NCBI GenBank assembly: GCA_021108405.1
Contig: JAIOQW010000347.1
Coordinates: 18,486 to 82,485 of the forward strand
Source: Methanosarcinales archaeon
GTDB lineage: Archaea > Halobacteriota > Methanosarcinia > Methanosarcinales > Methanocomedenaceae
Direction: 5' to 3'
DNA length: 64,000 nucleotides
The notes beneath the pieces were generated by a model that ran no database searches, was not told where the DNA came from, and saw only the letters and a program-made list of their open reading frames with translations. The position numbers and the translations under genes are program-made. This document shows, piece by piece, positions 1,011 through 58,028 of the stretch. Positions within the stretch are counted from its first letter, which is position 1, and each line of letters starts with the position of its first letter.

Positions 1011-1180
1011 ATAGTATATCAAGTATAACTTGATATATCGAAAATGTTCACTTCGTTCACATTTTCTAATTCTCCATTCCTCTGGAATATCGGACGAAGA
1101 TTCTACGAATCTTCTAATCTTCGGCTCTTTTAAGAGTCTCAGTCAAGAAAATCCGACCAAAGGGAGGATTTTGTTCTTGA
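1011..1180 (+). repeat. Mosaic hairpin repeat, locus 1: M1-M2-M3-M4-M5-M6 (full copy)
   Basis: TATATCAAGTATAACTTGATATA / GAAAATGTTCACTTCGTTCACATTTTC / CCATTCCTCTGGAATA / GAAGATTCTACGAATCTTC / CGGCTCTTTTAAGAGTC / TCAAGAAAATCCGACCAAAGGGAGGATTTTGTTCTTGA. Lies between the KaiC-like gene end and the RAM-protein start. Confidence 0.9.
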
Positions 1181-4455: not shown

Positions 4456-4526
4456 CTCAAGAAAATCCGAGCGTTAACGAGTATTTTGTTCTACATCAAG
4501 TTATACATGATATACTATTAAAAAAT
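4456..4526 (+). repeat. Mosaic hairpin repeat, locus 2: M6 followed by M1 with AT-rich flank
   Basis: CTCAAGAAAATCCGAGCGTTAACGAGTATTTTGTTCTA then CATCAAGTTATACATGATATACTATTAAAAAA. Confidence 0.8.
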
Positions 4527-6886: not shown

Positions 6887-7060
6887 AAGAACAAAATCCT
6901 CACTTCATTCGGATTTTCTTGACTGAGGCTCGTAAAAGAGCCGAAGATTAGAAGATTCGCAGAATCTTCGTCTGACATTCCAGAGGAATGGAGGATTAGA
7001 AAATGTGAACGAAGTGAACATTTTCGATATATCAAGTTATACTTGATATACTATAAAAAA
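6887..7060 (-). repeat. Mosaic hairpin repeat, locus 3: full M1-M6 copy, inverted
   Basis: Reverse complement of locus 1, module for module. Ends with ACTTGATATACTATAAAAAA. Confidence 0.9.
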
Positions 7061-11600: not shown

Positions 11601-14597
11601 CCATCCTGTCAGATCAATTGTCAAATTGACTCTTTTACAATTATTACCATCTGGTTCTACTACTGAACTGATGTTCAGGTCTGAGCTGGTCTTGTAAGGT
11701 GTCCCTCCGAACATCCCTTCTTTCATAACCATAGTAACATTTGTGGCGCTAGTAATATTATGCTTATTTCCGCCCATCCAGCTATCACTGGCTTCCACGA
11801 TTATACTCATACTCTCACCAACGCCAAAACGGTTATTCCAGTCCTTTGCATAAGCCCAGGCAACAAATGGATTCGACTCAACCCATGCCCTGCGTGTCTC
11901 AATATTACCACCTGATTCTGCCTCGAACACAAATTCATACATACCTGATTTTGTAACTGCTCCATCGGTATATTCTATGGTTTCTGATGTAGTTGCGTTA
12001 GTTTCAATTTGAATTGGATCAATTGTATGTGATCCACCAATAAACGTTGGTGGCTGCGGATTTTCCCAGCTTCCCATATAGTATATCTTATCAAGTGTAA
12101 TATTAGATATCATATTTAAAGACATATTGGATGGGTCTGCTATTTTGGCAATAAATGATATATCTTCACCTGCTTGTATATTCCACATTTCAGGATATAT
12201 ATCAAACATGAAACTTCTAACTTCAAACCACCCGTGTCCGTAATCATAAATGACATCATTTGTCACAGGATCATTTCCGTTGACCTTTATGGAAACATCA
12301 TACCATCCGGATTTTAACGGATTCGTGGCATTAATAGTTAATATTACAGTCCCATTTTTATCAGTTGTTCCGCTGACATTGGAACCTGTGGTATCAAAAC
12401 TGATCTTTTCCCATGTCTCACCATAACGAATTTCAGCAGCGGTTACCAGTTTATCTTCCACAGGACTGTGGCTCGAATCTTCAACTGTAACTTCAATTTT
12501 TATATCTGAAGTTGAGGTGAAAGTCTTGAACATACCACCCTCAGTTGCCGGGCATGCCCATATGAAATATAGTTTCGTATCAAAGAATCCATGACCGACA
12601 GCCTGTGTACTTGTTCCGTCTTTTAGAGTTGCATTGATCCAGAATTTCACATGATGGAAACCCAGACTACTGTCATTTACATAGAACCTGAGACCTCTGG
12701 AGCTTTGTATATCAACAAGATGAGGATTTTCCATATATTCAGTGACAAGTGCTCCTTCGCTTTCACTATATACTTCGATTAAACCTGCATCGGTTATGTT
12801 AGCAGAAGGTATGACCTCCATGTTCTTGGGGTCAAATGCCATTATCTTTAGTGTTACGTTAGCATTTCGTGATACCATTGGTGCAAAATTACCATCTGAT
12901 GTTGAAGGCTGCCCATGAACGAAAATATTTTGAACTCCAATACCTGTGAATTCTTCTTCTACTGTCCCGTCCAGGTCAACAGTTACTTTAACATTAAATA
13001 TCCCGGTTGAGGGTGGCGTTTTGAAAGTAATTATACTGGCATTTTGTGCGGTGTTGTTGAGTTCGGTTCGCATCCATGGATCTACCAAATTATCTTCAAA
13101 GAATGTGGTAAGATCTATTACATCCCACTGGCGTGTAACATCAACTCCCGATGAGTCCAGTATTGTTAATGAAAATTTACTCTTGTTGCTGTTGTCGGTA
13201 AGGCCGTTGATATCAGCTTCTGTACCTGTGCTCATATCAAAACCGCCCACAAAGATATAACCAGTCTCATCAGGTGCAAAACCTTCAAGGTCATGCTTTT
13301 GCGGACTTACCGGGAACAAGAATATATCATATCCTCTTACCTGGTAACCGATGTATGACTTCTGTTTCGAAGAACCAATAGTTGCTATATATTCTACTTT
13401 ATAATCTCCTTGCGGGGCATTATCAGGTATCGTGAAAGAAGAATTGTAGAAACCCATATCACTATTAAATGAAAGTGTGTTTGAATTGTTATATCCTTTG
13501 GGACCTTTGATATTTGCAGTAACGGTCGCGTAAGATCCATTGATAACCATACCGGTTGACCTTTTCAGATATACTACGAAGATACCATTATCGCCACGTG
13601 CAAATTGATGTTGTGGTTTATACTCGGGAGACAATATATCCCCATACATTGAATATGTATTAACAGAATACGAAATGTGTCCTACATCACCTGCAATAAA
13701 GTGATACAGTCCTGATTTACTTTGTATGGTAATATTTGTGGTAACTACACCATACTTGTCAGTGGTTACCGTAGTTGTTTCTAACAGTGTCCCATTGTCA
13801 TTGACATGATCAAGAGTTAGTTCTATATTACTTAAGCGATAGTCAGAAGCATTTAGTGCAAGCAGCGTGATGTTCTTATCTCCACCACTCTGAAAAACCG
13901 GTGCAATAGGACGAGCAAGTACTATTTCAGTAGCATTATCAACATAAATAAGTGTATACATGGTAGCATTAAGTTTAACCTTCGAGCCTTCAACCAGATT
14001 ACCAATAGTACTAACACCTGAACCGTCGGAACTTAAGTTCATATCGTCATCGTCATCCATATAAACAGTATCATCATCAGAGACCAGGAAATAGTAATCA
14101 GTATCATCGAATTCAATATTTCCGCCAGTCTTACTAACATTAAGCGGACCCTGAATATTATGATTGGTTGATAGGCTAACAGTCAGAACCTGCCCCTGGG
14201 TAAACAGTATTTTTATTTTCTTAGGATCATTTATTCCAAGTACAGTAAAATTCAGATATGGTGAAATAGTTCCACTTATAACATCTTGCGCTTTGATCAT
14301 ATAATTTCCTGATTCAGCAGGTGCAATTATAGTTGCTGAAAAAATACTATTATTTGCCTTTACAGTAGTAGTATTTTCCCACGCAGAGTCATTTGATATT
14401 ATAATTTCAACATGGCCTGAAGCATTTCCATCAAGTATTTCTCCTGAAACACTTATCGTATCACCCATAGAGTAGGTCTTTGAATCAATACTGAATTTCT
14501 GTATCGAAGTTGCCGTACATGCAGGAATTATCAATATGATGATGATTACTGCTAAAAATAAATATGCTAGCATATTGTACTTATTATATGTATTCAT
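8631..14597 (-). CDS. Giant (1988 aa) secreted or surface protein, probable glycoprotein, no recognisable catalytic domain
   Basis: N-terminal signal/TM (MLAYLFLAVIIIILIIPACTA). Very many N-x-S/T sequons by eye. Acidic FDEG repeat near the C-terminus and no C-terminal anchor. Its stop overlaps the start of 7183-8634 by 4 nt. Confidence 0.7.
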   Translation of the reverse strand: MNTYNKYNMLAYLFLAVIIIILIIPACTATSIQKFSIDSKTYSMGDTISVSGEILDGNASGHVEIIISNDSAWENTTTVKANNSIFSATIIAPAESGNYMIKAQDVISGTISPYLNFTVLGINDPKKIKILFTQGQVLTVSLSTNHNIQGPLNVSKTGGNIEFDDTDYYFLVSDDDTVYMDDDDDMNLSSDGSGVSTIGNLVEGSKVKLNATMYTLIYVDNATEIVLARPIAPVFQSGGDKNITLLALNASDYRLSNIELTLDHVNDNGTLLETTTVTTDKYGVVTTNITIQSKSGLYHFIAGDVGHISYSVNTYSMYGDILSPEYKPQHQFARGDNGIFVVYLKRSTGMVINGSYATVTANIKGPKGYNNSNTLSFNSDMGFYNSSFTIPDNAPQGDYKVEYIATIGSSKQKSYIGYQVRGYDIFLFPVSPQKHDLEGFAPDETGYIFVGGFDMSTGTEADINGLTDNSNKSKFSLTILDSSGVDVTRQWDVIDLTTFFEDNLVDPWMRTELNNTAQNASIITFKTPPSTGIFNVKVTVDLDGTVEEEFTGIGVQNIFVHGQPSTSDGNFAPMVSRNANVTLKIMAFDPKNMEVIPSANITDAGLIEVYSESEGALVTEYMENPHLVDIQSSRGLRFYVNDSSLGFHHVKFWINATLKDGTSTQAVGHGFFDTKLYFIWACPATEGGMFKTFTSTSDIKIEVTVEDSSHSPVEDKLVTAAEIRYGETWEKISFDTTGSNVSGTTDKNGTVILTINATNPLKSGWYDVSIKVNGNDPVTNDVIYDYGHGWFEVRSFMFDIYPEMWNIQAGEDISFIAKIADPSNMSLNMISNITLDKIYYMGSWENPQPPTFIGGSHTIDPIQIETNATTSETIEYTDGAVTKSGMYEFVFEAESGGNIETRRAWVESNPFVAWAYAKDWNNRFGVGESMSIIVEASDSWMGGNKHNITSATNVTMVMKEGMFGGTPYKTSSDLNISSVVEPDGNNCKRVNLTIDLTGWDEGSYFMTINVVDEDGDEVFTHFWFQVEIASVGLPEFYWIGVDLDRMQTTKTSIFVNDTTSKVEEWEKDIDGRYPGLNYSVATNSYVGKVAKWEIELLTEWEMEEDRTPFWILVNLTSPRNIYINYNNCNFSDTKNTTNLDIGETFNEKNNTNVTIRQWNVTSIGSDGSIEFTGKDCLSSGYNIDTSLSKSGEFIISDWMQDCDWLNIDLDGNGDYWANWDSRENIYYLILADNETAGIYDTVLVANTSNFSNAIDASAGDPVEFGGAPIYLINMMYQNNKYELKFTSYKMGWSGEWLGTFQNGKNVTIPFLIQKPGATDAKTGGIANANVTIDKLTWFTPGFNDINIDQESKTNEYGLAMLTINTSEKNIPNGQYLLHYNIELPGPYYTNISPYEMWNLPGLELRSFVVEASIGTVGDVNVTKVSDGNGLSVNYGIETEAMGAVMLHGTGKDDVLRIGWPFDMQDSWYFNTTNSSYHNDSTGISNFVTNDSINLTMGDQVVSYNFTDYYPEGNNVTINSGDTELCWGFWNITLNSATHGSTANMEIDYLLGDDWYQSGSRNYSLNEWIGWGPGEFHVNVSNVTSQNVTLTLYSAKALYKISDLEVLLDDDPDNGELESGRVSVVSYMGYTVYGYNDAEKSELEKYDQWCNTFDRVLVANSTFNESYRIGVQIPELDNEYVAVASPWGGKIIFANASLTHGIYPFSDWAPDGDSYYVGNFTEADVNTDLNDDGNVNVTQPYYMVLEDNCADGKFSVNSGRYDDDNDLTDRWGDNEPIDMYGEEGGTLNKFGEKFDERWVEIGTLWGWPISFPVMKETVNNVSTLITIANKEWEPFNVSENVSIFLTARTFTNEQVNGTISVDKLMVMWTDSMDDFDEGFDEGFDEGFDEGFDDGFDDDFDEGFDKGFDMDMMEPTIVNLDSAGTMTNGIGTLIINNSELINKVGEFSFGDFVVLINLTDSSTQKSEIVERHFMMENMSMMYHEEGGVHK
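8877..8981 (-). repeat. 12-bp coding tandem repeat (~9 units) encoding (F-D-E/D-G)n
   Basis: GTCAAAACCTTC-type units. Protein reads DDFDEGFDEGFDEGFDEGFDDGFDDDFDEGFDKGFD. Confidence 0.9.
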
Positions 14598-14843
14598 AAT
14601 ACTGCCCCCAAATTATAAAATTCCTATTTTATTAATATTTGATTTCTTTGTTTAAAGTCAAGACATCCCCAATTTATTTTATATTACTTACTATAAATAT
14701 CTTCTCATCTTTTAAACTGGAAAAAAAATTTAGTAAACCCATCACGCAGGAAAAACATCATACATAGTATTACGATAATAGAAAAGTTTATTACCATCAT
14801 CGATCATAAGGATGTTCCGCGGATATAATTGGTTTGTCATATT

Positions 14844-14922
14844 AATATCAAGTATACCTTGATATATCGAAAATGTTCACTCTGTTCACATTTTCTAATC
14901 TTCAGCTTCTTCGAAGCTTCAG
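14844..14922 (+). repeat. Mosaic hairpin repeat, locus 4: M1-M2-M5b
   Basis: AATATCAAGTATACCTTGATATA / GAAAATGTTCACTCTGTTCACATTTTC / TAATCTTCAGCTTCTTCGAAGCTTCAG. Confidence 0.85.
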
Positions 14923-15140: not shown

Positions 15141-15195
15141 TTTGAAGTGGATATGTAAACGCGAACGAAGTGAGCGTTTACATATCCACTTCAAA
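15141..15195. repeat. 22-bp perfect hairpin carrying the M2 loop (M7/M2-long)
   Basis: TTTGAAGTGGATATGTAAACGC-gaacgaagtga-GCGTTTACATATCCACTTCAAA, 64 nt upstream of the purL ATG. Confidence 0.9.
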
Positions 15196-23941: not shown

Positions 23942-24060
23942 GCGAAGATTAGAAGATTAGAAGATTCGCAGAATCTTCGTCTGACATTCCAGAGGAATGG
24001 AGGATTAGAAAATGTGAACGGAATGAACATTTTCGGTATATCAATTTATACTTGATATAC
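23942..24060 (-). repeat. Mosaic hairpin repeat, locus 5: M1-M2-M3-M4 plus M5 stub, inverted; abuts the aroC stop
   Basis: GAAGATTAGAAGATTAGAAGATTCGCAGAATCTTCG / ACATTCCAGAGGAATGGAGG / GAAAATGTGAACGGAATGAACATTTTC / TATATCAATTTATACTTGATATAC. Confidence 0.85.
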
Positions 24061-25139
24061 TAAGATAAATGATCTGTCCTGATCAAATGGTCTGCAAGTA
24101 CCAGTGCCATCATTGCCTCGGCAACGGGAACGATCCTCGGTGGAATTGTAGGATCATGCCGACCCTGAATAACGATCTCAGTATCAGACAGACTCAGCAG
24201 GTCTACTGTCTTCTGGGGTCTCGCAATAGATGGGGTTGGTTTAACAGCGATCCTGCAGATGATATTCTCTCCACTGGATATGCCACCCAGAATACCTCCG
24301 GCATTATTGGAAGTACATACTACTTTTCCATTTCTAATCTCAAATGGATCGTTCATCTGGCTACCTGTTAAACCTGCACATGCAAAACCTGCTCCGATCT
24401 CCACACCCTTAACTGCTCCGATCCCCATTAGAGCCCTGGCAATATCAGCATCCAGTTTATCAAATACAGGTTCACCGAGTCCGGGAGGCATTCCCAGAGC
24501 AATGATCTCAACAATCCCGCCAATGCTGTCGTTATTTGCTCTTGCCTGCCTGGTCTTACTGAGCATAACTTCTGCGGCTTTTAGGTCTGCACACCGCACA
24601 GGATTTGATTCCACATTGGTACGGATCTCATCAATAGTAACAGGTGAGGCTTTGACATTGGCAAGTTCCACTACATGTGCCAGTATTTCAATACCATGCA
24701 CAGCTAATACTTTTTTGGCTACTGCACCACCTGCCACACGTGCTGCAGTCTCCCTGGCAGATGCACGTCCTCCCCCTTTGTAATCACGAATACCATATTT
24801 CATGAAGTACGTATAATCCGCATGACCAGGACGGGGAGTATCTTTGATACTTTCGTATTTGCTGGAATCCGCATCCTTATTATAGATCACTAATGAGATG
24901 GGCGTACCAGTGGTCTTACCCTGGAAAATGCCGGATAGGATATTTACTTTGTCATCTTCTTTACGTGGTGTGGATACGTCACTCTGGCCCGGACGCCTCC
25001 TATCAAGCTCATGCTGGATATCAGCCTCTGTAAGCTCAAGTCCGGGAGGGCAGCCATCTATGACAACACCTGTTGCAGGACCATGACTTTCACCCCACGT
25101 TGTTATTGCGAATGCTTTTCCGAATGTGTTTCCTGCCAT
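24060..25139 (-). CDS. aroC: Chorismate synthase
   Basis: 359 aa, N-terminus [18 protein letters not shown] and full-length AroC pattern. Confidence 0.95.
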
Positions 25140-26216: not shown

Positions 26217-26673
26217 GTGAAATCATAGTAAATAAATTGCTCATTAATATTAAGATTAACTGTTTTTTATTAGAGTTAGAAGAAATAAAGAAAGATTTGG
26301 ATAATAATTATTGGGCTGGATTAACATAGATACACATAGATATGCAAATGCCTAAATAAAAAAAATATTTACTACTATGAATTACAGCAGTAACTTAAAA
26401 CCAATAATACTAAATAGTAATACTAATAATTACGTATTAATATATTAATGGATATATACTCCGTAAAAAAATAAAATGTGTTTATTTATCTTGCTATATA
26501 ATTTTACCACAGATAGAAAGATTCATAGAATCCAATCTTTTCCATACTTCCGGTGGTTATTATATTCTGACCAATGATTTTTCAATGGTATCTAAGTGAG
26601 GCTAAATAAATACATCTAGTAAACGTCGGTTTCGTTTGCATTACCTCAGAGTATAGGAAAGTATTTTCCAATA

Positions 26674-26725
26674 CAAGAAAATGCTCACTTCGTTCGCATT
26701 TACTTGAGATATATTTTTTTATAAA
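26674..26725 (+). repeat. Mosaic repeat, locus 6: M2 variant with T-rich tail
   Basis: CAAGAAAATGCTCACTTCGTTCGCATTTACTTGAGATATATTTTTTTAT. Near-identical to 45761-45803. Confidence 0.8.
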
Positions 26726-27752: not shown

Positions 27753-27820
27753 TATTATTTATACATCCACTGTGTATTAGAGGGTTAATAACTCTCAATA
27801 TTTAGTAGAGCATTTTATTA

Positions 27821-27937
27821 TAGTGTATCAAGTATAACTTGATATATCGAAGATGCTCACTTCGTTCACATTTTCTAATCCTCCATTCCTCTGGAATGTC
27901 GGTCAAGAAAATCCGACCGAAGGGAGGATTTTGTTAT
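27821..27937 (+). repeat. Mosaic hairpin repeat, locus 7: M1-M2-M3-M6
   Basis: TAGTGTATCAAGTATAACTTGATATA / GAAGATGCTCACTTCGTTCACATTTTC / CCATTCCTCTGGAATG / TCAAGAAAATCCGACCGAAGGGAGGATTTTGTTAT. Lies 83 nt upstream of tRNA-Leu. Confidence 0.9.
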
Positions 27938-28019
27938 TATTCACTACAAAAGGATAGAGGTGATTAAACAAACTGGAAATCAATAGAAGATTTGATTCAT
28001 AATTAATATAGTCCCATGG

Positions 28020-29050: not shown

Positions 29051-29160
29051 AGATATATCACGTATAACTTAATATACAATAAAATGGTATCCACTTCAAA
29101 TCAGAGAACAAAATCCTCCCTCCGGTCGGATTTTCTTGAGTATATCAATACTTGATATAC
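29051..29160 (-). repeat. Mosaic hairpin repeat, locus 8: degenerate M1, then M7-M6-M1 (inverted)
   Basis: ATATATCACGTATAACTTAATATA ... TATCCACTTCAAATCAGAG / AACAAAATCCTCCCTCCGGTCGGATTTTCTTGAG / TATATCAATACTTGATATAC. Confidence 0.85.
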
Positions 29161-31012: not shown

Positions 31013-31100
31013 TTCAACCTTCTTCAGAAATGTTCACATCCTATATAAAAGTATGAATTCTATTCTCCATTATCTTACCTTATCAATGCCTTTTTTCTAG

Positions 31101-31172
31101 TATATCAAGTATAACTTGATATACTCAAGAAAATCCGACCGAAGGGAGGATTTTGTTCTTGTATATCAAGTA
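31101..31172 (+). repeat. Mosaic hairpin repeat, locus 9: M1-M6-(half M1)
   Basis: TATATCAAGTATAACTTGATATA C TCAAGAAAATCCGACCGAAGGGAGGATTTTGTTCTTG TATATCAAGTA. Ends 4 nt from the moeA stop. Confidence 0.9.
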
Positions 31173-37207: not shown

Positions 37208-37253
37208 ATTATCAATTATTGTAACATGCTGCTTAAAGCATAAGTAGTTGTCT

Positions 37254-37414
37254 TTTTTATAGTATATCAGGCATAACTTGAGTTGAAAATACTTCGTATT
37301 TTCTAATCCTCCATTCCTCTGGAATATCAGACGAAGATTCTTCGAATCTTCTAATCTTCGGCTCTTTTAAGAGCCTCAGTCAAGAAAATCCGGGCGGAGG
37401 GAGGATTTTATTCC
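37254..37414 (+). repeat. Mosaic hairpin repeat, locus 10: M1(degenerate)-M2short-M3-M4-M5-M6
   Basis: GAAAATACTTCGTATTTTC / CCATTCCTCTGGAATA / GAAGATTCTTCGAATCTTC / CGGCTCTTTTAAGAGCCTCAG / TCAAGAAAATCCGGGCGGAGGGAGGATTTTATTCC. Confidence 0.9.
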
Positions 37415-37634: not shown

Positions 37635-40034
37635 ATGAATATATCCATAGGTACAAAATTTGCTATCGGGATTTTATCTATTCTTTTATTCTCCTTTCTC
37701 TTTGCAGGAGGAGTTGTAGTGTATCTATTTAATAATATGGTACAGGACAACCTACAGCAAACTGTAGTCCAGGATCTTAATGCTGCTGATGTATTGTATC
37801 AAGATCATTTAATGCAAATAGAGGATACGATATACTATACTGCAAGTTCCCAACGGATATGTATTCCTCTTATTAATAACGATTCTAATTTGCTATATAC
37901 TAATCTTGTCAATATCTATAATGAAAGGTTCAAGTACAAACTTGACTTCATCACAGTTACTGACAAGAATGGTGTGGTTATAGTCAGGGCAGCAAATCCC
38001 ACAATTTTCCAGGACTCTATATATGATCATAATCTGATCTGGTCTGCCTTAAATGGTACGACAGTGTCATCTACCCAGATAATGACTGAAAAAGAGCTGC
38101 TTAAAGAACGTAAAATAATGGCAGATCAGTCATCTATGGAATTTAATAACACGCTAAATGTAAAATCCGGACCTGATAATATCTCAAACACATGCATGGT
38201 TATAATGGCAGCAGCTCCAATCAAAGACAATGAAGATAATGTCATTGGTGTATTGTATGGTGGTGACCTGATAAATCGCGATAATAAGATCGTAGATAAA
38301 ATACAGAATGCTCTATATCCTAATGAAAATTATAATAGCAATGATATAGGAGTAGTTACTATCTACCAGGATGATTTCAGGATATCTACTACTGTTCCCA
38401 CAGACACGAAAGAGCAGTCAGTCAGTACCAGAGTTTCAGAAGAAGTTCATGATGCCGTGTTAAATAAAGGAAAATACTGGGATGGCAGGGCATTTGTGGT
38501 AGATGAGTGGTACGTTACTGCTTATAAACCTATCAAAGATTTCGATGGAAATATTATAGGTATGATCAAAGTTGGTATCCTGGAGCAGCCGTATATTGAT
38601 AAAGGATATAAAGTACTGGGTATTTACCTTGTATATTTATTTTCAGGTTTTATATTATCAATTTTCTTAACCCGTTATTTTACCAAAACCATTACTAAAC
38701 CCATATATAAATTGACCAGAGGAACAAAGGACCTGGTTCATGGTAGTTTTAAAAGGATAAATATTAAAACAAATGACGAGATCGAAAAACTTGCTGATGC
38801 TTTTAATGATATGGCAATAGAACTGCAGAAGACAATGGGTAAACTTATTTCATCCAGGAATGAGATTGTAACAATGTTTGAAAGTATGAGTGATGTTGCT
38901 AGTGCCCAGGACATGAATATGAAGATCACTTTTGCTAATAAACTGGCAAAGGAGATATATGGTGAAGATATCATAGGCAAATTCTGTTATAAAGTATATG
39001 CATGTGAAGAAAAATGCTGTAAAAACTGTCCGGCTCTCGATTCAATTAAGACTACAAAGGTAACTCAAATAGTTCATAGAAGAATGAATAAGGAAAAATT
39101 TACCTCTTATTGTGAAATCACCTGTTCACTGCTAATAAATGAAAAAAATGATATTTCAGGCACTCTGATAATACGAAGAGATGTAACAGAGTCTAAAACA
39201 CTTGAGTATGAACTTAAGCAATCCTTTAATGACCTGGAAAGTGCCTATAAAGAACTTCAGCAAATTGACATAAAGAAATCTGAAATAGTCGCTAACTTTT
39301 CCCATGAGATACGCACTCCACTTACGGCTATTAAAGGTTTTTCAGAATTGATGATCGATGATACCTTTGGCATCACAACTGAAAAGCAAAAGAAATACCT
39401 GGCCGTAATAATACAAAATACTGATCGACTGACCAAATTGATAACAGATGTTTTAGACCTATCCAGAATGGACTCTAAAAATCTCGATATTACTACTATC
39501 AAACTGAATGATTTAATAAATATTATCAAAGCAGATTTTACCAAACCTGCTGTTAATAAACAGATCGAAATTTCAGTTGAGATCGAAGATAAACTGGTAC
39601 TTGAGGCAGATAATGACAAGCTTGCCAGGGTATTCACCAATCTATTGGAAAATGCTATTAAATTCACAGACAAGGGGGGTAAAATATCGATAAAAGCATG
39701 TCATAAGGGTAAAGATCAAATACATATTGAGATCAGTGATACTGGAATAGGGATACCTGAGGATGAACTTGAAAAAATATTTGATAGATTCTACCAGGTG
39801 GATGCAAGTAGTACACGAAAATTCGGCGGGACCGGTCTGGGTCTTGCTTTATCCAAAATAACAATTACCAGGCACAATGGTAAGATATGGGTCCATAGTG
39901 TGGTTGGGGAGGGAAGTAGCTTTCATATTATTCTACCAATCAAGCAGACTACAAATATTAATACACTTCAACAAACTCTTCTAATTACACACTTCGATTC
40001 ATCGAAGGGTTTAAATATCATCATCTACACATAA
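37635..40034 (+). CDS. Membrane sensor histidine kinase (extracellular Cache-like region, HAMP, Cys-rich PAS-like, HisKA, HATPase_c)
   Basis: Two TM segments flank ~300 aa. HAMP-like segment DEIEKLADAFNDMAIEL, H-box FSHEIRTPL, NLLENAIKFT, DTGIGIP, GTGLGLA. Confidence 0.85.
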   Translation: MNISIGTKFAIGILSILLFSFLFAGGVVVYLFNNMVQDNLQQTVVQDLNAADVLYQDHLMQIEDTIYYTASSQRICIPLINNDSNLLYTNLVNIYNERFKYKLDFITVTDKNGVVIVRAANPTIFQDSIYDHNLIWSALNGTTVSSTQIMTEKELLKERKIMADQSSMEFNNTLNVKSGPDNISNTCMVIMAAAPIKDNEDNVIGVLYGGDLINRDNKIVDKIQNALYPNENYNSNDIGVVTIYQDDFRISTTVPTDTKEQSVSTRVSEEVHDAVLNKGKYWDGRAFVVDEWYVTAYKPIKDFDGNIIGMIKVGILEQPYIDKGYKVLGIYLVYLFSGFILSIFLTRYFTKTITKPIYKLTRGTKDLVHGSFKRINIKTNDEIEKLADAFNDMAIELQKTMGKLISSRNEIVTMFESMSDVASAQDMNMKITFANKLAKEIYGEDIIGKFCYKVYACEEKCCKNCPALDSIKTTKVTQIVHRRMNKEKFTSYCEITCSLLINEKNDISGTLIIRRDVTESKTLEYELKQSFNDLESAYKELQQIDIKKSEIVANFSHEIRTPLTAIKGFSELMIDDTFGITTEKQKKYLAVIIQNTDRLTKLITDVLDLSRMDSKNLDITTIKLNDLINIIKADFTKPAVNKQIEISVEIEDKLVLEADNDKLARVFTNLLENAIKFTDKGGKISIKACHKGKDQIHIEISDTGIGIPEDELEKIFDRFYQVDASSTRKFGGTGLGLALSKITITRHNGKIWVHSVVGEGSSFHIILPIKQTTNINTLQQTLLITHFDSSKGLNIIIYT

Positions 40035-40046
40035 TACTATACCTAA

Positions 40047-40211
40047 AAAGAACAAAATCCTTCCTTCGGTCGGATTTTCTTAACTGAAGCTTCGGAGAAG
40101 CTGAAGATTAGAAGATTCGTAGAATCTTCGTCCGACATTCCAGAGGAATGGAGGATTAGAAAATGCGAACGGAGTGAGCATTTTCAATATATCAAGTTAT
40201 ACTTGATATAC
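40047..40211 (-). repeat. Mosaic hairpin repeat, locus 11: M1-M2-M3-M4-M5b-M6, inverted; starts 13 nt after the kinase stop
   Basis: AAGAACAAAATCCTTCCTTCGGTCGGATTTTCTTAAC / TGAAGCTTCGGAGAAGCTGAAG / GAAGATTCGTAGAATCTTCG / ACATTCCAGAGGAATGGAGG / GAAAATGCGAACGGAGTGAGCATTTTC / ATATATCAAGTTATACTTGATATA. Confidence 0.9.
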
Positions 40212-40240
40212 TAAAACAAATCAAATGAGGGGGAAATCAT

Positions 40241-40459: not shown

Positions 40460-40701
40460 TTAGATGCTTGGTTCAATCTGATAATAACAATCGGTATGGT
40501 ACTATCTGCCTTTATAACCATATTTGCATGTTCCTTCTATGGTAAACAGTGTATTTCGTATTTTACCAAGAAAAATTATACTTTAATATACCATAAAACA
40601 GGCATAACTATAAGCCAAGGACAAACATTAAGAAAGCTCAATAACTTTTAAGCGTAAATTAATCTGAACTTTCATAAAGTTGTGCTAATAGCTCTTAATT
40701 G

Positions 40702-40871
40702 TTTTAGTATATCAAGTATAACTTGATATATTGAAAATGCTCACTCCGTTCGCATTTTCTAATCCTCCATTCCTCTGGAATGTCGGACGAAGATTCTACG
40801 AATCTTCTAATCCTCCATTCCTCTGGAATGTCGGTCAAGAAAATCCGAGCGCTAGCGAGGATTTTATTCTT
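40702..40871 (+). repeat. Mosaic hairpin repeat, locus 12: M1-M2-M3-M4-M3-M6
   Basis: M3 occurs twice (40761-40786 and 40809-40834 approx.). M6 has the GCTA loop variant (CCGAGCGCTAGCGAGG). Confidence 0.9.
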
Positions 40872-40930
40872 AATAACTTAACGAAGTGGATAAAAAAAAG
40901 CAATTAAGCAGCTTTTTTTTGAAAGAAATT

Positions 40931-42151
40931 ATGGAAAGTTTAAATATGGAAAATTTTAAAAATCTTGGTATCAGTGTGCGCCTTCTAAAAACTATAAATG
41001 ATGAGAAATTCGATCATCCTACCGAAATACAGGAAAAATCGATTCCGTTAATCCTTGCGGGAGAAGATGTTATAGCCGGATCTGCCACTGGTTCAGGAAA
41101 AACTCTTGCATTTGCTTGTGGCATATTACAGACTGCTAAAAAAGGAAAAGGGATACAGGCTTTGGTCCTGACTCCTACAAGAGAATTGGCAGAGCAGGTC
41201 ACAAATGCTTTAAGGAAATTCTCAAAATTAATCCCTTTAAAAATTATGTCCGTCTATGGTGGTGTGGGGATCAATGAGCAGATCAGGGGTTTAAAGACAG
41301 CAGATGTGGTGGTAGGAACACCGGGCAGGATACTTGATCATATCGAAAGAAAGACCATTAACTTTAATGGGGTAGAAACACTGGTGCTTGATGAAGCAGA
41401 CCGGATGTTAGATATGGGATTTATGGACGATGTGACTAAAATTATTAATAGATGTCCCCAGAACCGGCAGACCCTTTTATTCTCTGCTACGATCTCAAGA
41501 GAAATTGTCAAACTTGGCAGAAAATTTATGGATGAACCGATCCATGTAAAAGTTAAATCTAATATCGATGCATCACAATTGGACCAGTGCGTTTATAGAG
41601 TTAAAGCGAATATGAAATTATCATTACTCCTGCATCTATTGAAAAATGAAAAATCAGATCTGTCAATGGTTTTCTGCAATACAAAGAGATATACCGATAC
41701 GGTCGCTAAGAACCTGAGATCATCAGGTATTAATGCCCAGGCTATTCATGGCGGACTAACCCAGAAAAAGCGGAACAATGTTATGAAGCGATTCCATACA
41801 GGGAAGGCTGGTGTTCTTGTATGCACAGATGTGGCTGCAAGGGGGCTTGATATCGATGGTGTTTCCCATGTTTACAATTATGATATTCCCAGGGAGAGTA
41901 AGCAGTATATCCACAGGATCGGAAGAACTGCAAGAGCTGGAAAAGAAGGGAAGGCAATTAATATTCTTTCTGACAAAGATAATGATAATTATAAAAATGT
42001 ATTGAAATTCAATGATGTTGAGATAAGGAAAGAAAAGTTACCTGCTATAGAAAAGATACAAATAAAACAGTCGGAGCAACTTGGAATTAAACCTAACAAT
42101 AAACGCATCTCCAGAAAAAGGACTAATTCTAACAGGCACAAGAATCGATAG
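40931..42151 (+). CDS. DEAD-box ATP-dependent RNA helicase
   Basis: Q motif F..LGIS...PTEIQ, AGSATGSGKT, PTRELA, VLDEADRM (DEAD), SAT, HRIGRTARAG. The start is ATG 40931 or 40946 rather than the GTG 40886 call. Confidence 0.9.
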   Translation: MESLNMENFKNLGISVRLLKTINDEKFDHPTEIQEKSIPLILAGEDVIAGSATGSGKTLAFACGILQTAKKGKGIQALVLTPTRELAEQVTNALRKFSKLIPLKIMSVYGGVGINEQIRGLKTADVVVGTPGRILDHIERKTINFNGVETLVLDEADRMLDMGFMDDVTKIINRCPQNRQTLLFSATISREIVKLGRKFMDEPIHVKVKSNIDASQLDQCVYRVKANMKLSLLLHLLKNEKSDLSMVFCNTKRYTDTVAKNLRSSGINAQAIHGGLTQKKRNNVMKRFHTGKAGVLVCTDVAARGLDIDGVSHVYNYDIPRESKQYIHRIGRTARAGKEGKAINILSDKDNDNYKNVLKFNDVEIRKEKLPAIEKIQIKQSEQLGIKPNNKRISRKRTNSNRHKNR

Positions 42152-42243: not shown

Positions 42244-42416
42244 TTTTATAATATATCAAGTATAACTTGATATATCAAAAACGCTCACTCCGTTCACATT
42301 TTTTGATCCTCCATTCCTCTGGAATGTCGGACGAAGATTCTACGAATTTCCTAATCCACCATTCCTCCGGAATGTCGGTCAAGAAAATCCGAGCGTTAGC
42401 GAGGATTTTGTTCTTG
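42244..42416 (+). repeat. Mosaic hairpin repeat, locus 13: M1-M2-M3-M4-M3-M6
   Basis: Same module order as locus 12. M6 has the GTTA loop variant. Confidence 0.9.
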
Positions 42417-43734: not shown

Positions 43735-43955
43735 TAGAATATCAAGTATAACTTGATATATCGAAAAAATGGAGGCGCTCACTTCGTTCACATTTTTTGA
43801 TCCTCCATTCCTCCGGAATGTCGGACGAAGATTCTACAAATCTTCTAATCCTCCATTCCTCCGGAATGTCGGACGAAGATTCTACAAATCTTCTAATCCT
43901 CCATTCCTCCGGAATGTCGGTCAAGAAAATCCGAGCGTTAGCGAGGATTTTGTTC
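43735..43955 (+). repeat. Mosaic hairpin repeat, locus 14: M1-M2-(M3-M4)x2-M3-M6
   Basis: Contains a perfect 48-bp tandem duplication, 43801-43848 = 43849-43896. Confidence 0.95.
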
Positions 43956-43991
43956 AAATACCAACATATTAGAATAAAGGAGTTATTGATT

Positions 43992-44976: not shown

Positions 44977-45222
44977 TCATAAACCATTAGCATCTGCAAA
45001 TTTAATTAATGCCTCACCAAGTGCCCTGGTATATTTTGGATTCAAATTGAATCTGGCCTTTTTTTGTCCGCTGCGTTCCTTTGCGATTTCAACATACTCT
45101 TTATCATATCTCTCACTGGATGCAAGTGTTATGGTCATGTACCAACCGCTACTCATCTTCACTTCTAAATAATCTTTTGCATCTTCTTTTTCTGGTGTGT
45201 CTGTCATTTTATTTTTCCTCAT
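44977..45222 (-). CDS. Hypothetical protein, 81 aa
   Basis: Clean ORF with charged composition. No family recognised. Confidence 0.35.
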   Translation of the reverse strand: MRKNKMTDTPEKEDAKDYLEVKMSSGWYMTITLASSERYDKEYVEIAKERSGQKKARFNLNPKYTRALGEALIKFADANGL

Positions 45223-45247
45223 AGTGTGATTATGAATATTTTTTTGT

Positions 45248-45311
45248 AGTATATAATCTGTAAGATAATATACTTAAGAAAATCCGACCGAAGGGAGGAT
45301 TTTGTTCTTGA
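45248..45311 (+). repeat. Mosaic hairpin repeat, locus 15: degenerate M1 + M6
   Basis: TAGTATATAATCTGTAAGATAATATAC TTAAGAAAATCCGACCGAAGGGAGGATTTTGTTCTTGA. Confidence 0.85.
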
Positions 45312-45405: not shown

Positions 45406-45759
45406 ATGTCAAAAAAATCGGGTGCAATGCGAGGAGTTAATCCCAAAGCAATGAACAAAATGATGAAGCAAATGGGGATAAACAGTGATGAGATTGACAA
45501 TGTAGAGCAGGTTATAATCAGGACTCAGGATACTGACATTATTTTCGATGATGCCAATGTGACCAAAGTAGAAGCTCCTGGTATGCTAACCTATCAGATA
45601 ATAGGTAATCCGCGGGAAGTTCCAAGAGAGATCCAAATATCGCAAGAGGATATAACCCTGGTTGCCGAGCAAACCGGAAAGTCCCAGGATGAAGCCAGAG
45701 CAGCTCTAAAGGAGACGGGTGGAGATTTGGCAGAAGCTATTTTAAAACTGGGAAGTTAA
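45406..45759 (+). CDS. nac: Nascent polypeptide-associated complex protein (NAC domain + UBA)
   Basis: 117 aa. MNKMMKQMGI..., VIIRT..., and the C-terminal UBA-like DEARAALKETGGDLAEAILKL. Confidence 0.9.
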   Translation: MSKKSGAMRGVNPKAMNKMMKQMGINSDEIDNVEQVIIRTQDTDIIFDDANVTKVEAPGMLTYQIIGNPREVPREIQISQEDITLVAEQTGKSQDEARAALKETGGDLAEAILKLGS

Positions 45760-45760
45760 T

Positions 45761-45865
45761 AAAAATGCTCACTTCGTTCGCATTTGCTTGAGATATTTTT
45801 TTATAGTATATCAAGTATAACTTGAGGTACTCAAGAAAATCCGACTGAAGGGAGGATTTTGTTCT
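45761..45865 (+). repeat. Mosaic hairpin repeat, locus 16: M2variant-M1-M6, starts 2 nt after the nac stop
   Basis: AAAAATGCTCACTTCGTTCGCATTTGCTTGAGATATTTTTTTATAG / TATATCAAGTATAACTTGAGGTAC / TCAAGAAAATCCGACTGAAGGGAGGATTTTGTTCT. Confidence 0.9.
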
Positions 45866-52864: not shown

Positions 52865-55312
52865 TCATCCTGACAGCCATATTGCTATAATCTCCTGGAG
52901 ATCTGTAGAAGACATAATATGTCCTCTTACTGGTATATCCTCTAACCAGTGATGAATAGCTTTTTGAAGTTCCACTGTAGTGACTGCACCCCCCCCTTCT
53001 GAATCTTCACCAATCCATTCATTTTTCCAATTATCATTAATTTGATTTCCACCAACTTTTATCACCCAGAAATCCTTACCACCAGCACTGTACGATTCCG
53101 TAGATCCTGCAATTATATAACCACCATCAGTAGTCTGCTGGATTGATTGTGCAAAATCATTATCAGTCCCTCCAAAGGTTTCATTCCATTGCTCGTTTCC
53201 ATTCGAATCTGTTTTCACAAGCCAGAAATAATAGGAATATTCACTACTATACGATTGTGTGGATCCTGCAATTATATAACCACCATCAATGGTTTGCTGG
53301 ACTGAGTTTGCATAATCCCTACTATTTCCTCCAAAGGTCTCGTTCCATTGCTCGTTCCCATTCGAATCGGTTTTAATAAGCCAGATATCTTCATAAAAAT
53401 TATCATCCTCCGTAATTCCAGCAATGATATAACCACTGTCAGATGTCTGCTGGACTGAGTATGCCCAATCCCCATAAGATTTTGTAAAGGTCTTATCCCA
53501 TTGCTTGTTTCCATTCGAATCTGTTTTCACAAGCCAGGAATCAGCCATACCAGCATCGTAATGAATATATCCTGCAATGATATAGCCACCATCAGTGGTC
53601 TGCTGAACAGAAGATGCTTTATCTTCATAAATTCCTCCAAATGTTTTGTTCCATTGCTCGTTTCCATTCAAATCTGTTTTCACAAGCCAAAAATCACCTT
53701 CATTAACATCGTACGAGGACGTATATCCTGCAATTATATAACCACCATCAATAGTCTGCTGAACAGAAGATGCCTCTTCCCAGGCAGTTCCTCCAAATGT
53801 CTCGTTCCATTGTTCGTTTCCATTCGAATCCGTTTTCACAAGCCAGGAATCACTATAACCAGCACCGTACGAACACGTTGATCCTGCAAATATATAACCA
53901 CCTTCTATAGTCTGCTGGACCGAATTTGCCCAATCTCGGTTAGTTCCTCCAAATGTTTTGTTCCATTGTTCATTTCCATTCGAATCCGTTTTCACAAGCC
54001 AAGAATCACCACAACCAGCACCGTACGAGTACGTATATCCTACAATTATATAACCACCATCAGTGGTCTGCTGAACAGAGGATGCATCTTCCCAGGCAGT
54101 TCCCCCAAATGTCTTGTTCCATTGCTCGTTTCCGTTTAAATCGGTTTTCACAACCCAAAAATTCCCATAACCAACACCATACGAATACGTACGTCCTGCA
54201 ATAATATAACCGTCATCAGTAGTCTGCTGGACTGTGTTTGCAGAATCACTATTAATTCCTCCGAATGTTTTGTTCCATTGCTCGTTTCCATTCGAATCTG
54301 TTTTCACTAAACAAAAATCAGACTTATCAGCACCATACGGGTATGTATATCCTGCTATGATATAACCACCATCAGTAGTCTGCTGAACTGAGTATGCAAA
54401 ATCACCATTAGATCCACCAAATGTTTTGTTCCATTGCTCGTTTCCGTTTGAATCAATTTTCTTCAATGAAAAATCATAGCCACCAGTGCTGTACCAGTCC
54501 GTCGATCCTGCAATTATATAACCACCATCAGTGGTCTGCTGGACGGAGCATGCCTCCTCATCATAATATTCTGCAAATGTTTTGTTCCATTGCTCATTTC
54601 CATTCGAATCTGTTTTCACAATCCAGAAATCTGACCAGTAATCACTACTATACGAATACGTTTCTCCTGTAATTATATAACCACCATCAGAGGTCTGCTG
54701 GATAGAGTATGCACAATCCCGTTCCGTTCCTCCAATTGTCTTGCTCCATTGCTCATTTCCGTTCAGATCTATTTTCATCAATAGAAGATCACGATCACTA
54801 TACGACCATCTTTCTCCTGCAAGAATATAACCACCGTCAGTGGTTTGTTGAACTGAATATATATTCAACCAGTTAGATCCTACATAAGTCTTATTCCATT
54901 GCTCGTTTCCGTTTGAATCGGTCTTCACAAGCCAGAAATCACCAGAATCAACTATGTGCGTGTACGTATTTGCAATTATATAACCACCATCAATGGTCTG
55001 CTGGACAAAAGATGCGTAATTATCCTCAGTTCCATCAAAGGTCTTGCTCCATTGCTCGTTTCCATTGGAATCGGTTTTCACTAATAAATAATCATAATCA
55101 CCATTCAACCACCTATATCCTGCAAGAATATAACCACCATCAATAGTCTGTTGAATAGATGATATTTCACCCCAGGAATTTCCTCCAAAAGTCTTGTTCC
55201 ATTCTTCTTCTGGTGCCGCTCCATTAGCACATCCAATGTTTATGGATATTAGCATTAAGAATAGAAGCGCGAGCATTAATATTAATTTGAATGTTCTTTT
55301 TACACTATTCAT
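52865..55312 (-). CDS. Secreted protein made of ~14 tandem ~52-aa beta-propeller-like repeats
   Basis: Signal peptide, then 13 copies of W/FLVKTDSNGNEQWNKTFGG...SVQQT.DGGYIIAG plus edge repeats. The unique ~70-aa C-terminal tail has no anchor motif. Confidence 0.75.
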   Translation of the reverse strand: MNSVKRTFKLILMLALLFLMLISINIGCANGAAPEEEWNKTFGGNSWGEISSIQQTIDGGYILAGYRWLNGDYDYLLVKTDSNGNEQWSKTFDGTEDNYASFVQQTIDGGYIIANTYTHIVDSGDFWLVKTDSNGNEQWNKTYVGSNWLNIYSVQQTTDGGYILAGERWSYSDRDLLLMKIDLNGNEQWSKTIGGTERDCAYSIQQTSDGGYIITGETYSYSSDYWSDFWIVKTDSNGNEQWNKTFAEYYDEEACSVQQTTDGGYIIAGSTDWYSTGGYDFSLKKIDSNGNEQWNKTFGGSNGDFAYSVQQTTDGGYIIAGYTYPYGADKSDFCLVKTDSNGNEQWNKTFGGINSDSANTVQQTTDDGYIIAGRTYSYGVGYGNFWVVKTDLNGNEQWNKTFGGTAWEDASSVQQTTDGGYIIVGYTYSYGAGCGDSWLVKTDSNGNEQWNKTFGGTNRDWANSVQQTIEGGYIFAGSTCSYGAGYSDSWLVKTDSNGNEQWNETFGGTAWEEASSVQQTIDGGYIIAGYTSSYDVNEGDFWLVKTDLNGNEQWNKTFGGIYEDKASSVQQTTDGGYIIAGYIHYDAGMADSWLVKTDSNGNKQWDKTFTKSYGDWAYSVQQTSDSGYIIAGITEDDNFYEDIWLIKTDSNGNEQWNETFGGNSRDYANSVQQTIDGGYIIAGSTQSYSSEYSYYFWLVKTDSNGNEQWNETFGGTDNDFAQSIQQTTDGGYIIAGSTESYSAGGKDFWVIKVGGNQINDNWKNEWIGEDSEGGGAVTTVELQKAIHHWLEDIPVRGHIMSSTDLQEIIAIWLSG
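53035..55210 (-). repeat. Coding tandem array (~156-165 bp period) inside 52865-55312
   Basis: Recurrent DNA blocks such as CCAAATGTTTTGTTCCATTGCTCGTTTCCATTCGAATC.GTTTTCAC. Confidence 0.9.
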
Positions 55313-55709: not shown

Positions 55710-55847
55710 AAGAACAAAATCCTCCCTTTGGTCGGATTTTTTTGACTGAAGCTCCGAAGGAGTTGAAGGTTAGAAGATTCGTAGAATCTTCGTCCGACAT
55801 TCCAGAGGAATGGAGGATTAGTAAATGCGAACGAAGTGAGCATTTAC
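55710..55847 (-). repeat. Mosaic hairpin repeat, locus 17: M2-M3-M4-M5b-M6 (inverted, no M1); abuts the stop of 55850-57724
   Basis: AAGAACAAAATCCTCCCTTTGGTCGGATTTTTTTGAC / TGAAGCTCCGAAGGAGTTGAAG / GAAGATTCGTAGAATCTTCG / ACATTCCAGAGGAATGGAGG / GTAAATGCGAACGAAGTGAGCATTTAC. Confidence 0.9.
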
Positions 55848-57765: not shown

Positions 57766-57975
57766 GAGAACAAAATCATCGCTAACCCTTGGATTTTCTT
57801 GACCGACATTCCAAAGGAATGGAGGATTAGAAGATTCATAGAATCTTCGCCTGAGGCTCTGGAAGAGCCGAAGATAAAAATGTGAACGGAGTGAGCATTT
57901 TCGATACTGAAGCTTCGAAGAAGCTGAAGAATAGAAAATACGAAGTGTTTTCGATTCAAGTATAACTTGATATAC
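57766..57975 (-). repeat. Mosaic hairpin repeat, locus 18: permuted copy; + strand order M6'-M3'-M4'-M5'-M2'-M5b'-M2short'-M1
   Basis: All modules keep the inverted polarity, but M3'-M4'-M5' run in the opposite order to loci 3 and 11. Contains both M5 types and both M2 types. Confidence 0.9.
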
Positions 57976-58028
57976 TATTAAAAATGAAAATATATTAATA
58001 GTTGATCCTCTATTTATTACTATATAAC

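Follow-up and report, generated by a model that had tools for sequence, protein, structure and literature searches.

The DNA considered here, a window of 64 kb, is part of the metagenomic contig ENA ERZ26872896 NODE_71. Its closest named relatives are recorded as 'ANME-2 cluster archaeon' and 'Candidatus Methanomarinus sp.' (ANME, anaerobic methanotrophic archaea), and its gene content is that of ordinary archaeal housekeeping genes. Short hairpin modules, labelled M1 to M6, are scattered along it. A preliminary description had noticed that the stems of two of them, M6 (at positions 45274 to 45311) and M2, change in pairs from copy to copy while a tandem G·A/A·G mismatch stays in place. The observation is real, and stronger than stated, since every module shows this covariation. 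We identify M6 as the right-end hairpin, and M1 as the left-end hairpin, of a small gene-less, non-autonomous mobile DNA element. Comparison of related strains shows that the element is mobile and that it inserts, with no target duplication, directly 3′ of a T-rich NTTNT motif. Most likely, what keeps pairing and mismatch in place is the need of the element to fold, as a single strand, for copying, and not a role as a kink-turn RNA. Selection would act, most plausibly, on the element's own propagation.

Paired changes in the hairpins of the focal element

The focal copy is a minimal element, with the following parts, all on the plus strand:

45248..45308 (+): focal minimal element, 61 nt, AG + M1b + CTTAAG + M6 core + GTTCT; boundaries set by analogy with pairs of empty and filled sites
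45240..45247 (+): T-rich left flank TTTTTTGT, ending in NTTNT, the presumed target motif; from the flanks of 20 insertion sites
45250..45272 (+): M1b hairpin, TATATAATCT GTA AGATAATATA, a covarying M1 variant
45274..45311 (+): M6 extended hairpin, the feature first noticed; from sequence, copy count, covariation and folding energy
45279..45303 (+): M6 core, with tandem G·A/A·G at 45286–45287 and 45295–45296, and inner helix and loop at 45288–45294
45304..45308 (+): 3′ terminal pentamer of the element, GTTCT, conserved across copies

The bases at 45274–45311 read TTAAG AAAATCC GA CC GAA GG GA GGATTTT GTT CTTGA, and the stem, mismatches and loop attributed to this hairpin are readily seen in them. 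The pattern of the M6 core, AAAATCCGA-N7-GAGGATTTT with at most two mismatches, turns up 12 times in the window for 0.01 expected, and the word TCACTTCGTTC, taken for the loop of M2, 13 times for 0.75 expected (at most one mismatch). The variants that had been enumerated were found again: copies with the inner helix CC/GG at 45279, 31130 and 27908; copies with GC/GC at 40840 (loop GCTA) and at 42384 and 43926 (loop GTTA); an AT/GT copy at 6893, on the minus strand; and M2 stems in GT/AC (1041), GC/GC (40734), TAAATGC (55822) and TAAACGC (15156).

Several details have to be amended. The copy at 1148, said to carry a GAA loop, carries AAA; the G·A pair, supposed to be retained throughout, is lost at 37385 (GG), 40054 (AA) and 57772; and the 11-nt loop of M2, presented as constant, is changed in 5 of 13 copies. 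Nor is this stretch a loop. On its other strand it reads GA-AC-GAA-GT-GA, within AAAATG(Y)-GA-AC-GAA-GT-GA-(R)CATTTT, which has the very design of M6: tandem G·A/A·G between a 7-bp stem and a 2-bp helix, closed by a purine triloop. Two solitary hairpins (26673–26707 and 45757–45791) place an M2 core in M6-type flanks (CTCAAG…), and M2 and M6 are therefore homologous. M2 is an inverted paralogue of M6.

The preliminary description had called for a covariation test of these stems. It was run as a shuffle test on 32 distinct M2 and M6 sequences, drawn from the window and from related genomes, with 500 column shuffles and with partner columns slid by one to three positions as controls. Paired cells amount to 95.5%, against 82.6% in the shuffles and about 50% with slid partners. 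Five of the nine pairs are changed on both sides, in 36 cells, a level reached by none of the 500 shuffles, the changes mostly separating three sub-families (M6, M6b and M2) and representing few independent events. Conservation in the G·A columns is 90% or more. The other modules covary too: 97.4% of the cells are paired in M3 and M5, with 5 of 7 pairs doubly changed, and 92.3% in M1 (TATATCAAGT ATA ACTTGATATA, of which M1b is a covarying variant), with 4 of 10.

The mismatch itself recurs in stems of a different make. M3 reads CC-TC-CATTCC-TCT-GGAATG-TC-GG, and M5 and M5b likewise contain tandem TC/TC; this is G·A/A·G on the opposite strand, at a distance of 2 bp from the foot of a stem of 6 bp. 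A survey of all hairpins of M3/M5-type geometry in about 200 kb of ANME-2 sequence found (GA, GA) to be by a wide margin the commonest 2×2 mismatch, with 37 cases, followed by its mirror image with 27, and at most 8 cases for each other type. The purine mismatches are kept, not corrected into a perfect palindrome.

Could all this arise with no selection on structure? The apparent compensation would be a side effect of a small number of sub-families, spread by copying and gene conversion, and of the self-repair of palindromes through template switching. That most double changes separate the three sub-families agrees with this scenario, and so does an event visible at one orthologous locus. At 27917–27923 (10081–10106 in L168; L-numbers such as L079 or L168 designate related loci or strains compared with the window), CCGAAGG is replaced by GCGTTAGC in L168, the rest of a 260-nt stretch being identical. 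The change goes from M6 (CC/GG, GAA) to an M6b allele (GC/GC, GTTA) in one step, which disqualifies it as an instance of stepwise compensatory evolution. At 29123–29125 (L168 8879–8903), CCGGAGG is GTAGAGG in L168. Both M6 hairpins that are orthologous between the window and L168 differ by such clustered changes in the apical 7–8 nt alone, the chance probability of which is about 1e-10 with a background divergence near 0.9%; no apical change was found between L171 and L172, which are 98.3% identical. An assembly artefact was rejected for these switches: the variant lies at most 12 nt from unique flank, near enough for short k-mers to fix its locus. The switches are most simply explained by short-tract gene conversion from another copy, and targeted variation at the M6 apex could be involved.

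Self-templated repair, by contrast, would erase the G·A mismatches, yet these are the best conserved positions. Unrelated stems (M3, M5, M5b, M1b) share one architecture, and T·G intermediates occur between T-A and C-G pairs. We hold a lack of selection on structure to be highly improbable. The selection on a folded structure that the preliminary description had argued for stands, inasmuch as the fold of a single strand is supported and all modules covary, with the restriction that at least one of the compensatory substitutions is a swap of alleles.

Insertion sites, architecture and distribution

Two sites were seen both empty and filled, in strains 97–99% identical to the filled relative. 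Site 1 lies in the 5′ untranslated region (UTR) of a DEAD-box helicase gene, about 180 nt long, conserved across ANME-2 species and located downstream of a TATA-like box. It is empty in L081, L082, L083 and L085, where the sequence runs AATTGTTTT/TAATAAC (a slash marks the junction). In L079, which shares 97% DNA identity with L083, it reads AGTATATC...(M1-M6b)...GGATTTTGTTCT, and in the window M1-M2-M3-M4-M3-M6b stands between identical flanks. Site 2 (31099–31159) is empty in L168, L169 and L170 as GCCTTTATTCT/TGTATATCAAG, L168 having 99.1% DNA identity with the window; filled, it becomes GCCTTTTTTCT/AG...GTTCT/TGTATATCAAG, and L171 and L172 have there two tandem elements joined as GTTCT/AGTATATC. 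A target duplication is required at neither site.

The left flanks of 20 insertion sites have T at −1 in 20 cases, at −4 in 19 and at −3 in 13. The five bases before AG fit NTTNT, usually closing an oligo-T tract, and this target, a loose motif, resembles the 3′ terminus of the element itself, GTTCT. Each position of GTTCT is kept in 30–35 of 35 copies, with unrelated sequence beyond. A tag N-TAG (N being A, G or C) precedes M1 in 24 of 27 copies; none is found before M6 or M2. The stop codon of the chorismate synthase gene, TAG at 24060–24062, leads the M1 at 24037–24062.

The smallest unit, 61 nt, has the layout AG-M1-CTCAAG-M6-GTTCT. The M1 hairpin starts 2–3 nt from the left end, the M6 core stops 5 nt from the right end, and the ends themselves, AGTATAT... 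and ...GTTCT, do not form inverted terminal repeats. Elements range from 61 to 230 nt with no gene inside, too short for a transposase. Longer copies are mosaics of the chain M1-M2-M3-M4-M5-M6, the interior of which is variable, duplicated or shuffled (48-nt tandem M3-M4 units included), with M2 and M6 as an inverted pair around M3–M5. In most composites the minimum-energy fold pairs M2 with M6, TC facing GA, and encloses the inner hairpins between them. The fold of the composite at 40706..40870 has z-scores of −8.8 and −8.3 for its two strands. The other copies in the window are as follows:

1013..1177 (+): composite M1-M2-M3-M4-M5-M6 between convergent genes
4462..4514 (+): decayed M6b-like hairpin, then an inverted M1
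6888..7052 (−): composite M1-M2-M3-M4-M5-M6, M6 inner helix AT/GT
14842..14922 (+): truncated element M1-M2-M5b, without M6
15141..15195 (+): perfect 22-bp stem around an M2-type G·A core
23960..24061 (−): truncated element M1-M2-M3-M4, its leading TAG being the chorismate synthase stop codon
26673..26707 (−): solo M2-core hairpin with M6-type flanks
27822..27937 (+): composite M1-M2-M3-M6 upstream of tRNA-Leu, M6 apex different from L168
29105..29161 (−): short-M1 + M6 element, antisense to both neighbour genes, apex different from L168
31099..31159 (+): minimal M1-M6 element, missing from the 99%-identical strains L168, L169 and L170
37261..37414 (+): degenerate composite, M6 G·A lost (GG), at a rearrangement breakpoint relative to L168
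40049..40212 (−): composite M1-M2-M3-M4-M5b-M6, in the opposite orientation to the composite after it
40706..40870 (+): composite M1-M2-M3-M4-M3-M6b in the conserved DEAD-box helicase 5′ UTR
42250..42414 (+): composite M1-M2-M3-M4-M3-M6b
43736..43956 (+): composite M1-M2-(M3-M4)x2-M3-M6b, 48-nt tandem units
45757..45791 (−): solo M2-core hairpin with M6-type flanks, an M2/M6 intermediate, beginning at the stop codon of the NAC gene (TAA, 45757–45759)
45805..45865 (+): minimal M1-M6 element, inner helix CT/GG (T·G wobble on the G·A strand)
55711..55847 (−): composite M2-M3-M4-M5b-M6, without M1
57767..57976 (−): shuffled composite (M1, M4-like, M5b, M2, M5, M4, M3, decayed M6b)

About 76 modules at some 19 intergenic loci make up 3.3% of the bases of the window, and no confirmed gene is interrupted. 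The same modular composites occur in ANME-2 HR1 and in the Methanosarcinales metagenome-assembled genomes (MAGs) CSMAG_508 and CSMAG_887. Among the matches listed in a search of one genome per prokaryotic species, ANME-2 HR1 and two Methanosarcinales MAGs are the only ones with multiple copies; the other genomes have single matches, presumably by chance, that lack the multi-copy pattern. Diverged M1b-M6 copies are present in two more ANME-2 MAGs, and the modules were not found at two other ANME-2 loci. A collection of viral contigs gave two chance matches only, the other modules lacking, and a search of the accessible literature for the module sequences and for ANME-2 repeats gave no match. 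The family is specific to a lineage, that of the ANME-2 (Methanomarinus-like) archaea. Neighbourhoods of the NAC gene in other ANME-2 genomes have no synteny with the window, and the contigs L165 and L167, which encode identical proteins, end inside repeats.

ANME-2 archaea are uncultured, consume much of the methane of marine sediments, and have genomes that assemble poorly. The element family is a likely cause of the fragmentation of their MAGs: contigs repeatedly break inside its copies, and one element coincides with a rearrangement breakpoint. Contig ends or runs of N inside elements are common, as in L010, L013, L033, L068, L069, L165 and L167. Insertion sites and apical variants could be used as strain markers, and the insertions in the helicase 5′ UTR, at stop codons and upstream of a tRNA gene are candidate regulatory changes.

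A few observations concern individual copies. The helicase leader (window 40500–40945; L079 5760–6000; L081 5860–6010; L082 2430–2630) recalls, by its length, the leaders of cold-regulated archaeal helicase genes. Directly after the stop codon of the same helicase and a T-run, L079 has at 7225–7397 a different insertion of 173 nt, absent from L083 (position 1374), which is 96–97% identical; it starts with ACAGTATATCAG, like M1, and may belong to a related element family. The composite next to tRNA-Leu(CAA) sits in a segment of about 187 nt (27786–27972) that L171 and L172 lack (L171 about 9200–9300) and that has TAGAGG as a direct repeat on either side; perhaps the composite arrived within a larger insertion. 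A further module, TTTGAAGTGGATA(T/C), forms the arms of the 22-bp hairpin at 15141–15195 and is also found beside other elements (29083–29100; L065 about 5400). A sensor kinase gene (37635–40034) is bracketed by inverted composites (37253–37413 and 40048–40225). In L168, positions 1–790 correspond to 38236–39025, inside this gene and inverted, joined to 37265 in the left element, which represents either an inversion or deletion between repeats or a chimeric assembly.

Other repeats of the window stand apart from this family. An open reading frame (ORF) of 815 aa at 52865–55312 (−) contains 13 tandem units of 150–159 nt (about 52 aa) with 63–81% identity. It has a weak match to a mucin/carbohydrate-binding module, probably encodes a repetitive surface protein, and its C-terminal 170 nt recur in HR1 loci. 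At 8865–8996, within an ORF of 1988 aa (8631–14597, −), a 12-nt tandem repeat, GTCAAAACCTTC, in at least 8 copies, encodes an acidic repeat. Compared with position 33831 of the window, L168 has a 30-nt in-frame repeat insertion in an ORF of 1087 aa resembling GDSL lipases.

The folded strand and its possible readers

Several features tell one strand from the other. At non-Watson-Crick positions of the stems, as read on the G·A strand, G·T is found 21 times and A·C 6 times (p = 0.006), a bias that loses significance when distinct sequences only are counted (14 G·T against 6 A·C, p = 0.12). M1 has its T·G wobbles on the strand that, in M6, carries the G·A pairs, and a series T-A, T·G, C-G is visible. 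The G·A strand of each module is 1–4 kcal/mol more stable than its complement, and that of the minimal element 3.6–6.2 kcal/mol; for the focal element (45248..45308) the folding energies are −17.2 kcal/mol (top strand) and −13.6 (bottom strand). Wobble bias, wobble strand of M1 and stability of the G·A strand, taken together, indicate that the constraint acts on one folded single strand of defined polarity. The loops on the G·A strand (GAA, GGA, and GNNA closed by C-G) resemble types that stabilize DNA mini-hairpins.

A folded strand of defined polarity could of course be RNA, and the preliminary description had thought of a protein-recognition element of the kink-turn or loop-E kind. M6 and M2 would be transcribed, and their tandem sheared G·A pairs with the 7-nt apex would make a K-loop-like site for L7Ae or another protein, with effects on the stability or translation of messenger RNAs. 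The sequence does fit 5′-N-GA-(7 nt)-GA-N′-3′, the formal layout of a K-loop, with tandem G·A/A·G set by a helix and, in M6 and M2, closing an apex of 7–8 nt, at conserved positions and in a sequence compatible with trans sugar-Hoogsteen pairs. As RNA, the G·A strand is 2–4 kcal/mol more stable than its complement and is favoured by G·U-compatible wobbles, and the copy at 40706–40870 lies in sense within a conserved 5′ UTR. But there is no 3-nt bulge, Watson-Crick C-G pairs sit beside the G·A pairs, the position 3b·3n of kink-turns is occupied by a Watson-Crick pair, and the apex of M6 and M2 can form 2 bp and a triloop. The internal loops are symmetric, 2×2, in all four module types, and in M3 and M5 the same G·A pairs lie in such a loop, which is unable to kink. 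Within one composite the G·A strand of M2, M3 and M5 is opposite to that of M6. Between co-directional genes, M6 is antisense in 8 cases and sense in 8, hence a required role in messenger RNA is unlikely. Copies come and go among strains 97–99% identical. Rfam gave no match to any module, either over the whole window at gathering thresholds or over 40–46 kb with E values up to 5. It is because of the random orientation and of the polymorphism between strains that we favour DNA over RNA, and the proposal of an RNA-binding site appears to us unlikely. Covariation among repeat copies does not by itself indicate a functional RNA.

What these Rfam searches did produce is the tRNA-Leu and, below threshold, two C/D-box matches that have nothing to do with the modules. 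A sub-threshold match to a C/D-box snoRNA family at 45163–45226 (−) scores 24.3 bits where 40 are required (E = 0.077); it overlaps a 76-aa ORF at its start, beside the focal element, and is probably due to chance.

Another way to use RNA would be as a scaffold for guides. Omega RNAs, used in trans by TnpB, are often encoded in palindrome-associated transposable elements, or PATEs (PMC10055086). The present elements might be PATEs that encode the 3′ part of such an RNA, M6 being the last hairpin of the scaffold and the flank beyond GTTCT the guide. M6 does adjoin the right end of the element, and the predicted fold of composites near 170 nt in length is very stable (z = −8.8). Yet the 61 nt of the minimal element fall short of a typical scaffold, shuffling and duplication of modules would be incompatible with a fixed one, and no tnpB was seen in the sequence fetched. 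We give this idea very little credit.

The hairpins might also be sites in DNA kept for the sake of the host: duplex or cruciform palindromes bound by a chromatin protein or a regulator, with a role in the insulation of domains or in the context of promoters and terminators. In Escherichia coli, bacterial interspersed mosaic elements (BIMEs) bind IHF and gyrase. The high intergenic density of the copies is in line with this, as are the likeness of M1 with its T-run to a TATA-box sequence and the adjacent oligo-T tracts, which serve as archaeal terminators. However, a dimeric site would prefer a true palindrome, and here the GA...GA mismatch is kept in four module types; the stems covary instead of keeping one sequence; the asymmetry of the wobbles points to one strand; and insertions that are polymorphic between strains speak against a fixed role in the host. 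A host function of this kind is hard to believe in.

Some other candidates were tried and rejected. The T-run followed by a TATA-like TAGTATAT is not a promoter of the element's own: the run of T is part of the target, and for the NAC gene another TATA-like box lies downstream of the element. As an intrinsic terminator the element has its T-run before M1, on the wrong side of the hairpins, GTTCT and unrelated sequence after M6, and a random orientation. M3 contains TTCCAGAGGAA, similar to the core of the origin recognition box (ORB) repeats of replication origins, but its copies are dispersed, not clustered. Integron attC sites do not fit, there being no cassette arrays and the orientation being mixed. 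Retroposition might be evoked by the A-run that follows the minus strand, but the T-run is already present in the empty sites.

The explanation that we prefer, and consider probable with due reserve, is that of a non-autonomous element akin to PATEs or to repetitive extragenic palindromic (REP) sequences, with top-strand DNA hairpins that a structure-specific transposase, provided in trans, would read. The element would move as single-stranded, top-strand DNA, and the transposase would recognize the subterminal hairpins, as in the peel-and-paste transposition of IS200/IS605 and PATEs, or as REPs and REP doublets (REPINs) do with the REP-associated tyrosine transposase (RAYT). Stems would change in pairs only, copies unable to fold ceasing to propagate. 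The G·A pairs and the purine loops would stabilize the top-strand hairpin over its complement, and in this way mark both the substrate strand and its orientation. Ectopic gene conversion among copies would shuffle modules and apical sequences.

A number of points weigh against this transposition scheme, beside the loss of significance of the wobble bias mentioned above. A transposase was found neither in the window (a Pfam search of 40 ORFs) nor in the 8.7 kb of contig beyond it, which hold Topo VI, gyrase B and NifB-like genes, and a six-frame scan of about 270 kb of related loci for the IS200 Y1 (Y..NQ) and HUH motifs gave none. Composites have G·A hairpins on both strands, for which a top-strand model needs inverted insertion or duplication. 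At least one copy, in a conserved 5′ UTR, is very probably transcribed, and a role as RNA is therefore conceivable. Since the last bases of flank and element are identical, element boundaries are uncertain by 1–5 nt. Canonical IS200/IS605 elements have end hairpins that are alike, the left one 15–20 nt inside the end, whereas M1 and M6 share no sequence and M1 is only 2–3 nt from the end. Finally, the REP-associated Y1 classes, or RAYT-type enzymes, are not reported in archaea (PMC6006769).

Comparison with known families of repeats

The tandem G·A common to the whole family would be a simple, testable recognition code for an enzyme acting on single-stranded DNA. One may go further and imagine, as a tentative and rather doubtful extension, a previously undescribed ANME-2 system of the REPIN/RAYT or IS200-PATE type, with an enzyme that reads G·A-marked DNA hairpins and an apex that acts as a fast-switching cassette (CCGAAGG, GCGTTAGC, GTAGAGG), maybe as a determinant of specificity. 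If true, this would be the first such system in archaea outside the PATEs of haloarchaea, and the apical cassette would switch faster than the surrounding genome mutates.

PATEs offer the closest published definition: no inverted terminal repeats, near-terminal palindromes, no target duplication, a length too short for a transposase, and 52-bp forms reduced to the termini that appear mobile (PMC3119063). The elements of the window are likewise gene-less, from tens to a few hundred bp long, with hairpins next to both ends and without inverted terminal repeats or duplication. Their empty sites are contiguous and seamless, insertion is 3′ of a short, if loose, motif resembling the 3′ end of the element, the imperfect hairpins are strand-specific, and the terminal-only forms of the two groups are similar in size (about 52–61 bp). 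They differ from PATEs and IS200/IS605 in their modular, shuffled interior, in left and right hairpins without sequence relationship, the left one starting only 2–3 nt from the end, in a loose NTTNT target instead of a fixed tetra- or pentanucleotide, in that no cognate tnpA or tnpB was identified in the sequence examined, and in their host, which is a methanotrophic lineage of Methanosarcinales, not a haloarchaeon. A classical MITE (a miniature transposable element with inverted repeats) was rejected, there being no terminal inverted repeats and no duplication at the two empty/filled sites.

With REP, BIME and REPIN sequences the family has in common short, imperfect extragenic palindromes in many copies, arranged in module mosaics of alternating orientation. 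The M2-M6 inverted doublet can fold back into one long hairpin, as a REPIN does, the tetranucleotide ending in TAG (A/G/C-TAG) directly 5′ of the M1 stem recalls the GTAG tag of REPs, and in both cases irregularities of the stem set the orientation. The irregularity is here a tandem G·A/A·G and not a bulge; the host is an archaeon, the stems are AT-rich, not GC-rich, and a single-copy RAYT gene with the repeats on its flanks was not seen. In bacteria, repeats of the REP/BIME type, structured and modular, are familiar; in archaea there is hardly any record of them.

The BOX elements of Streptococcus pneumoniae provide a last parallel. They have terminal modules, boxA and boxC, around a variable internal boxB, just as M1 and M6 are fixed ends around variable M3-M4 units of 48 nt, and both are intergenic with a strong predicted fold. 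They belong to another domain of life and share no sequence similarity with our elements, and they are not known for a conserved G·A mismatch. Host, dissimilar end hairpins, mosaic interior and a G·A signature in four module types set the family apart from PATEs as well as from REP, BIME and REPIN sequences.

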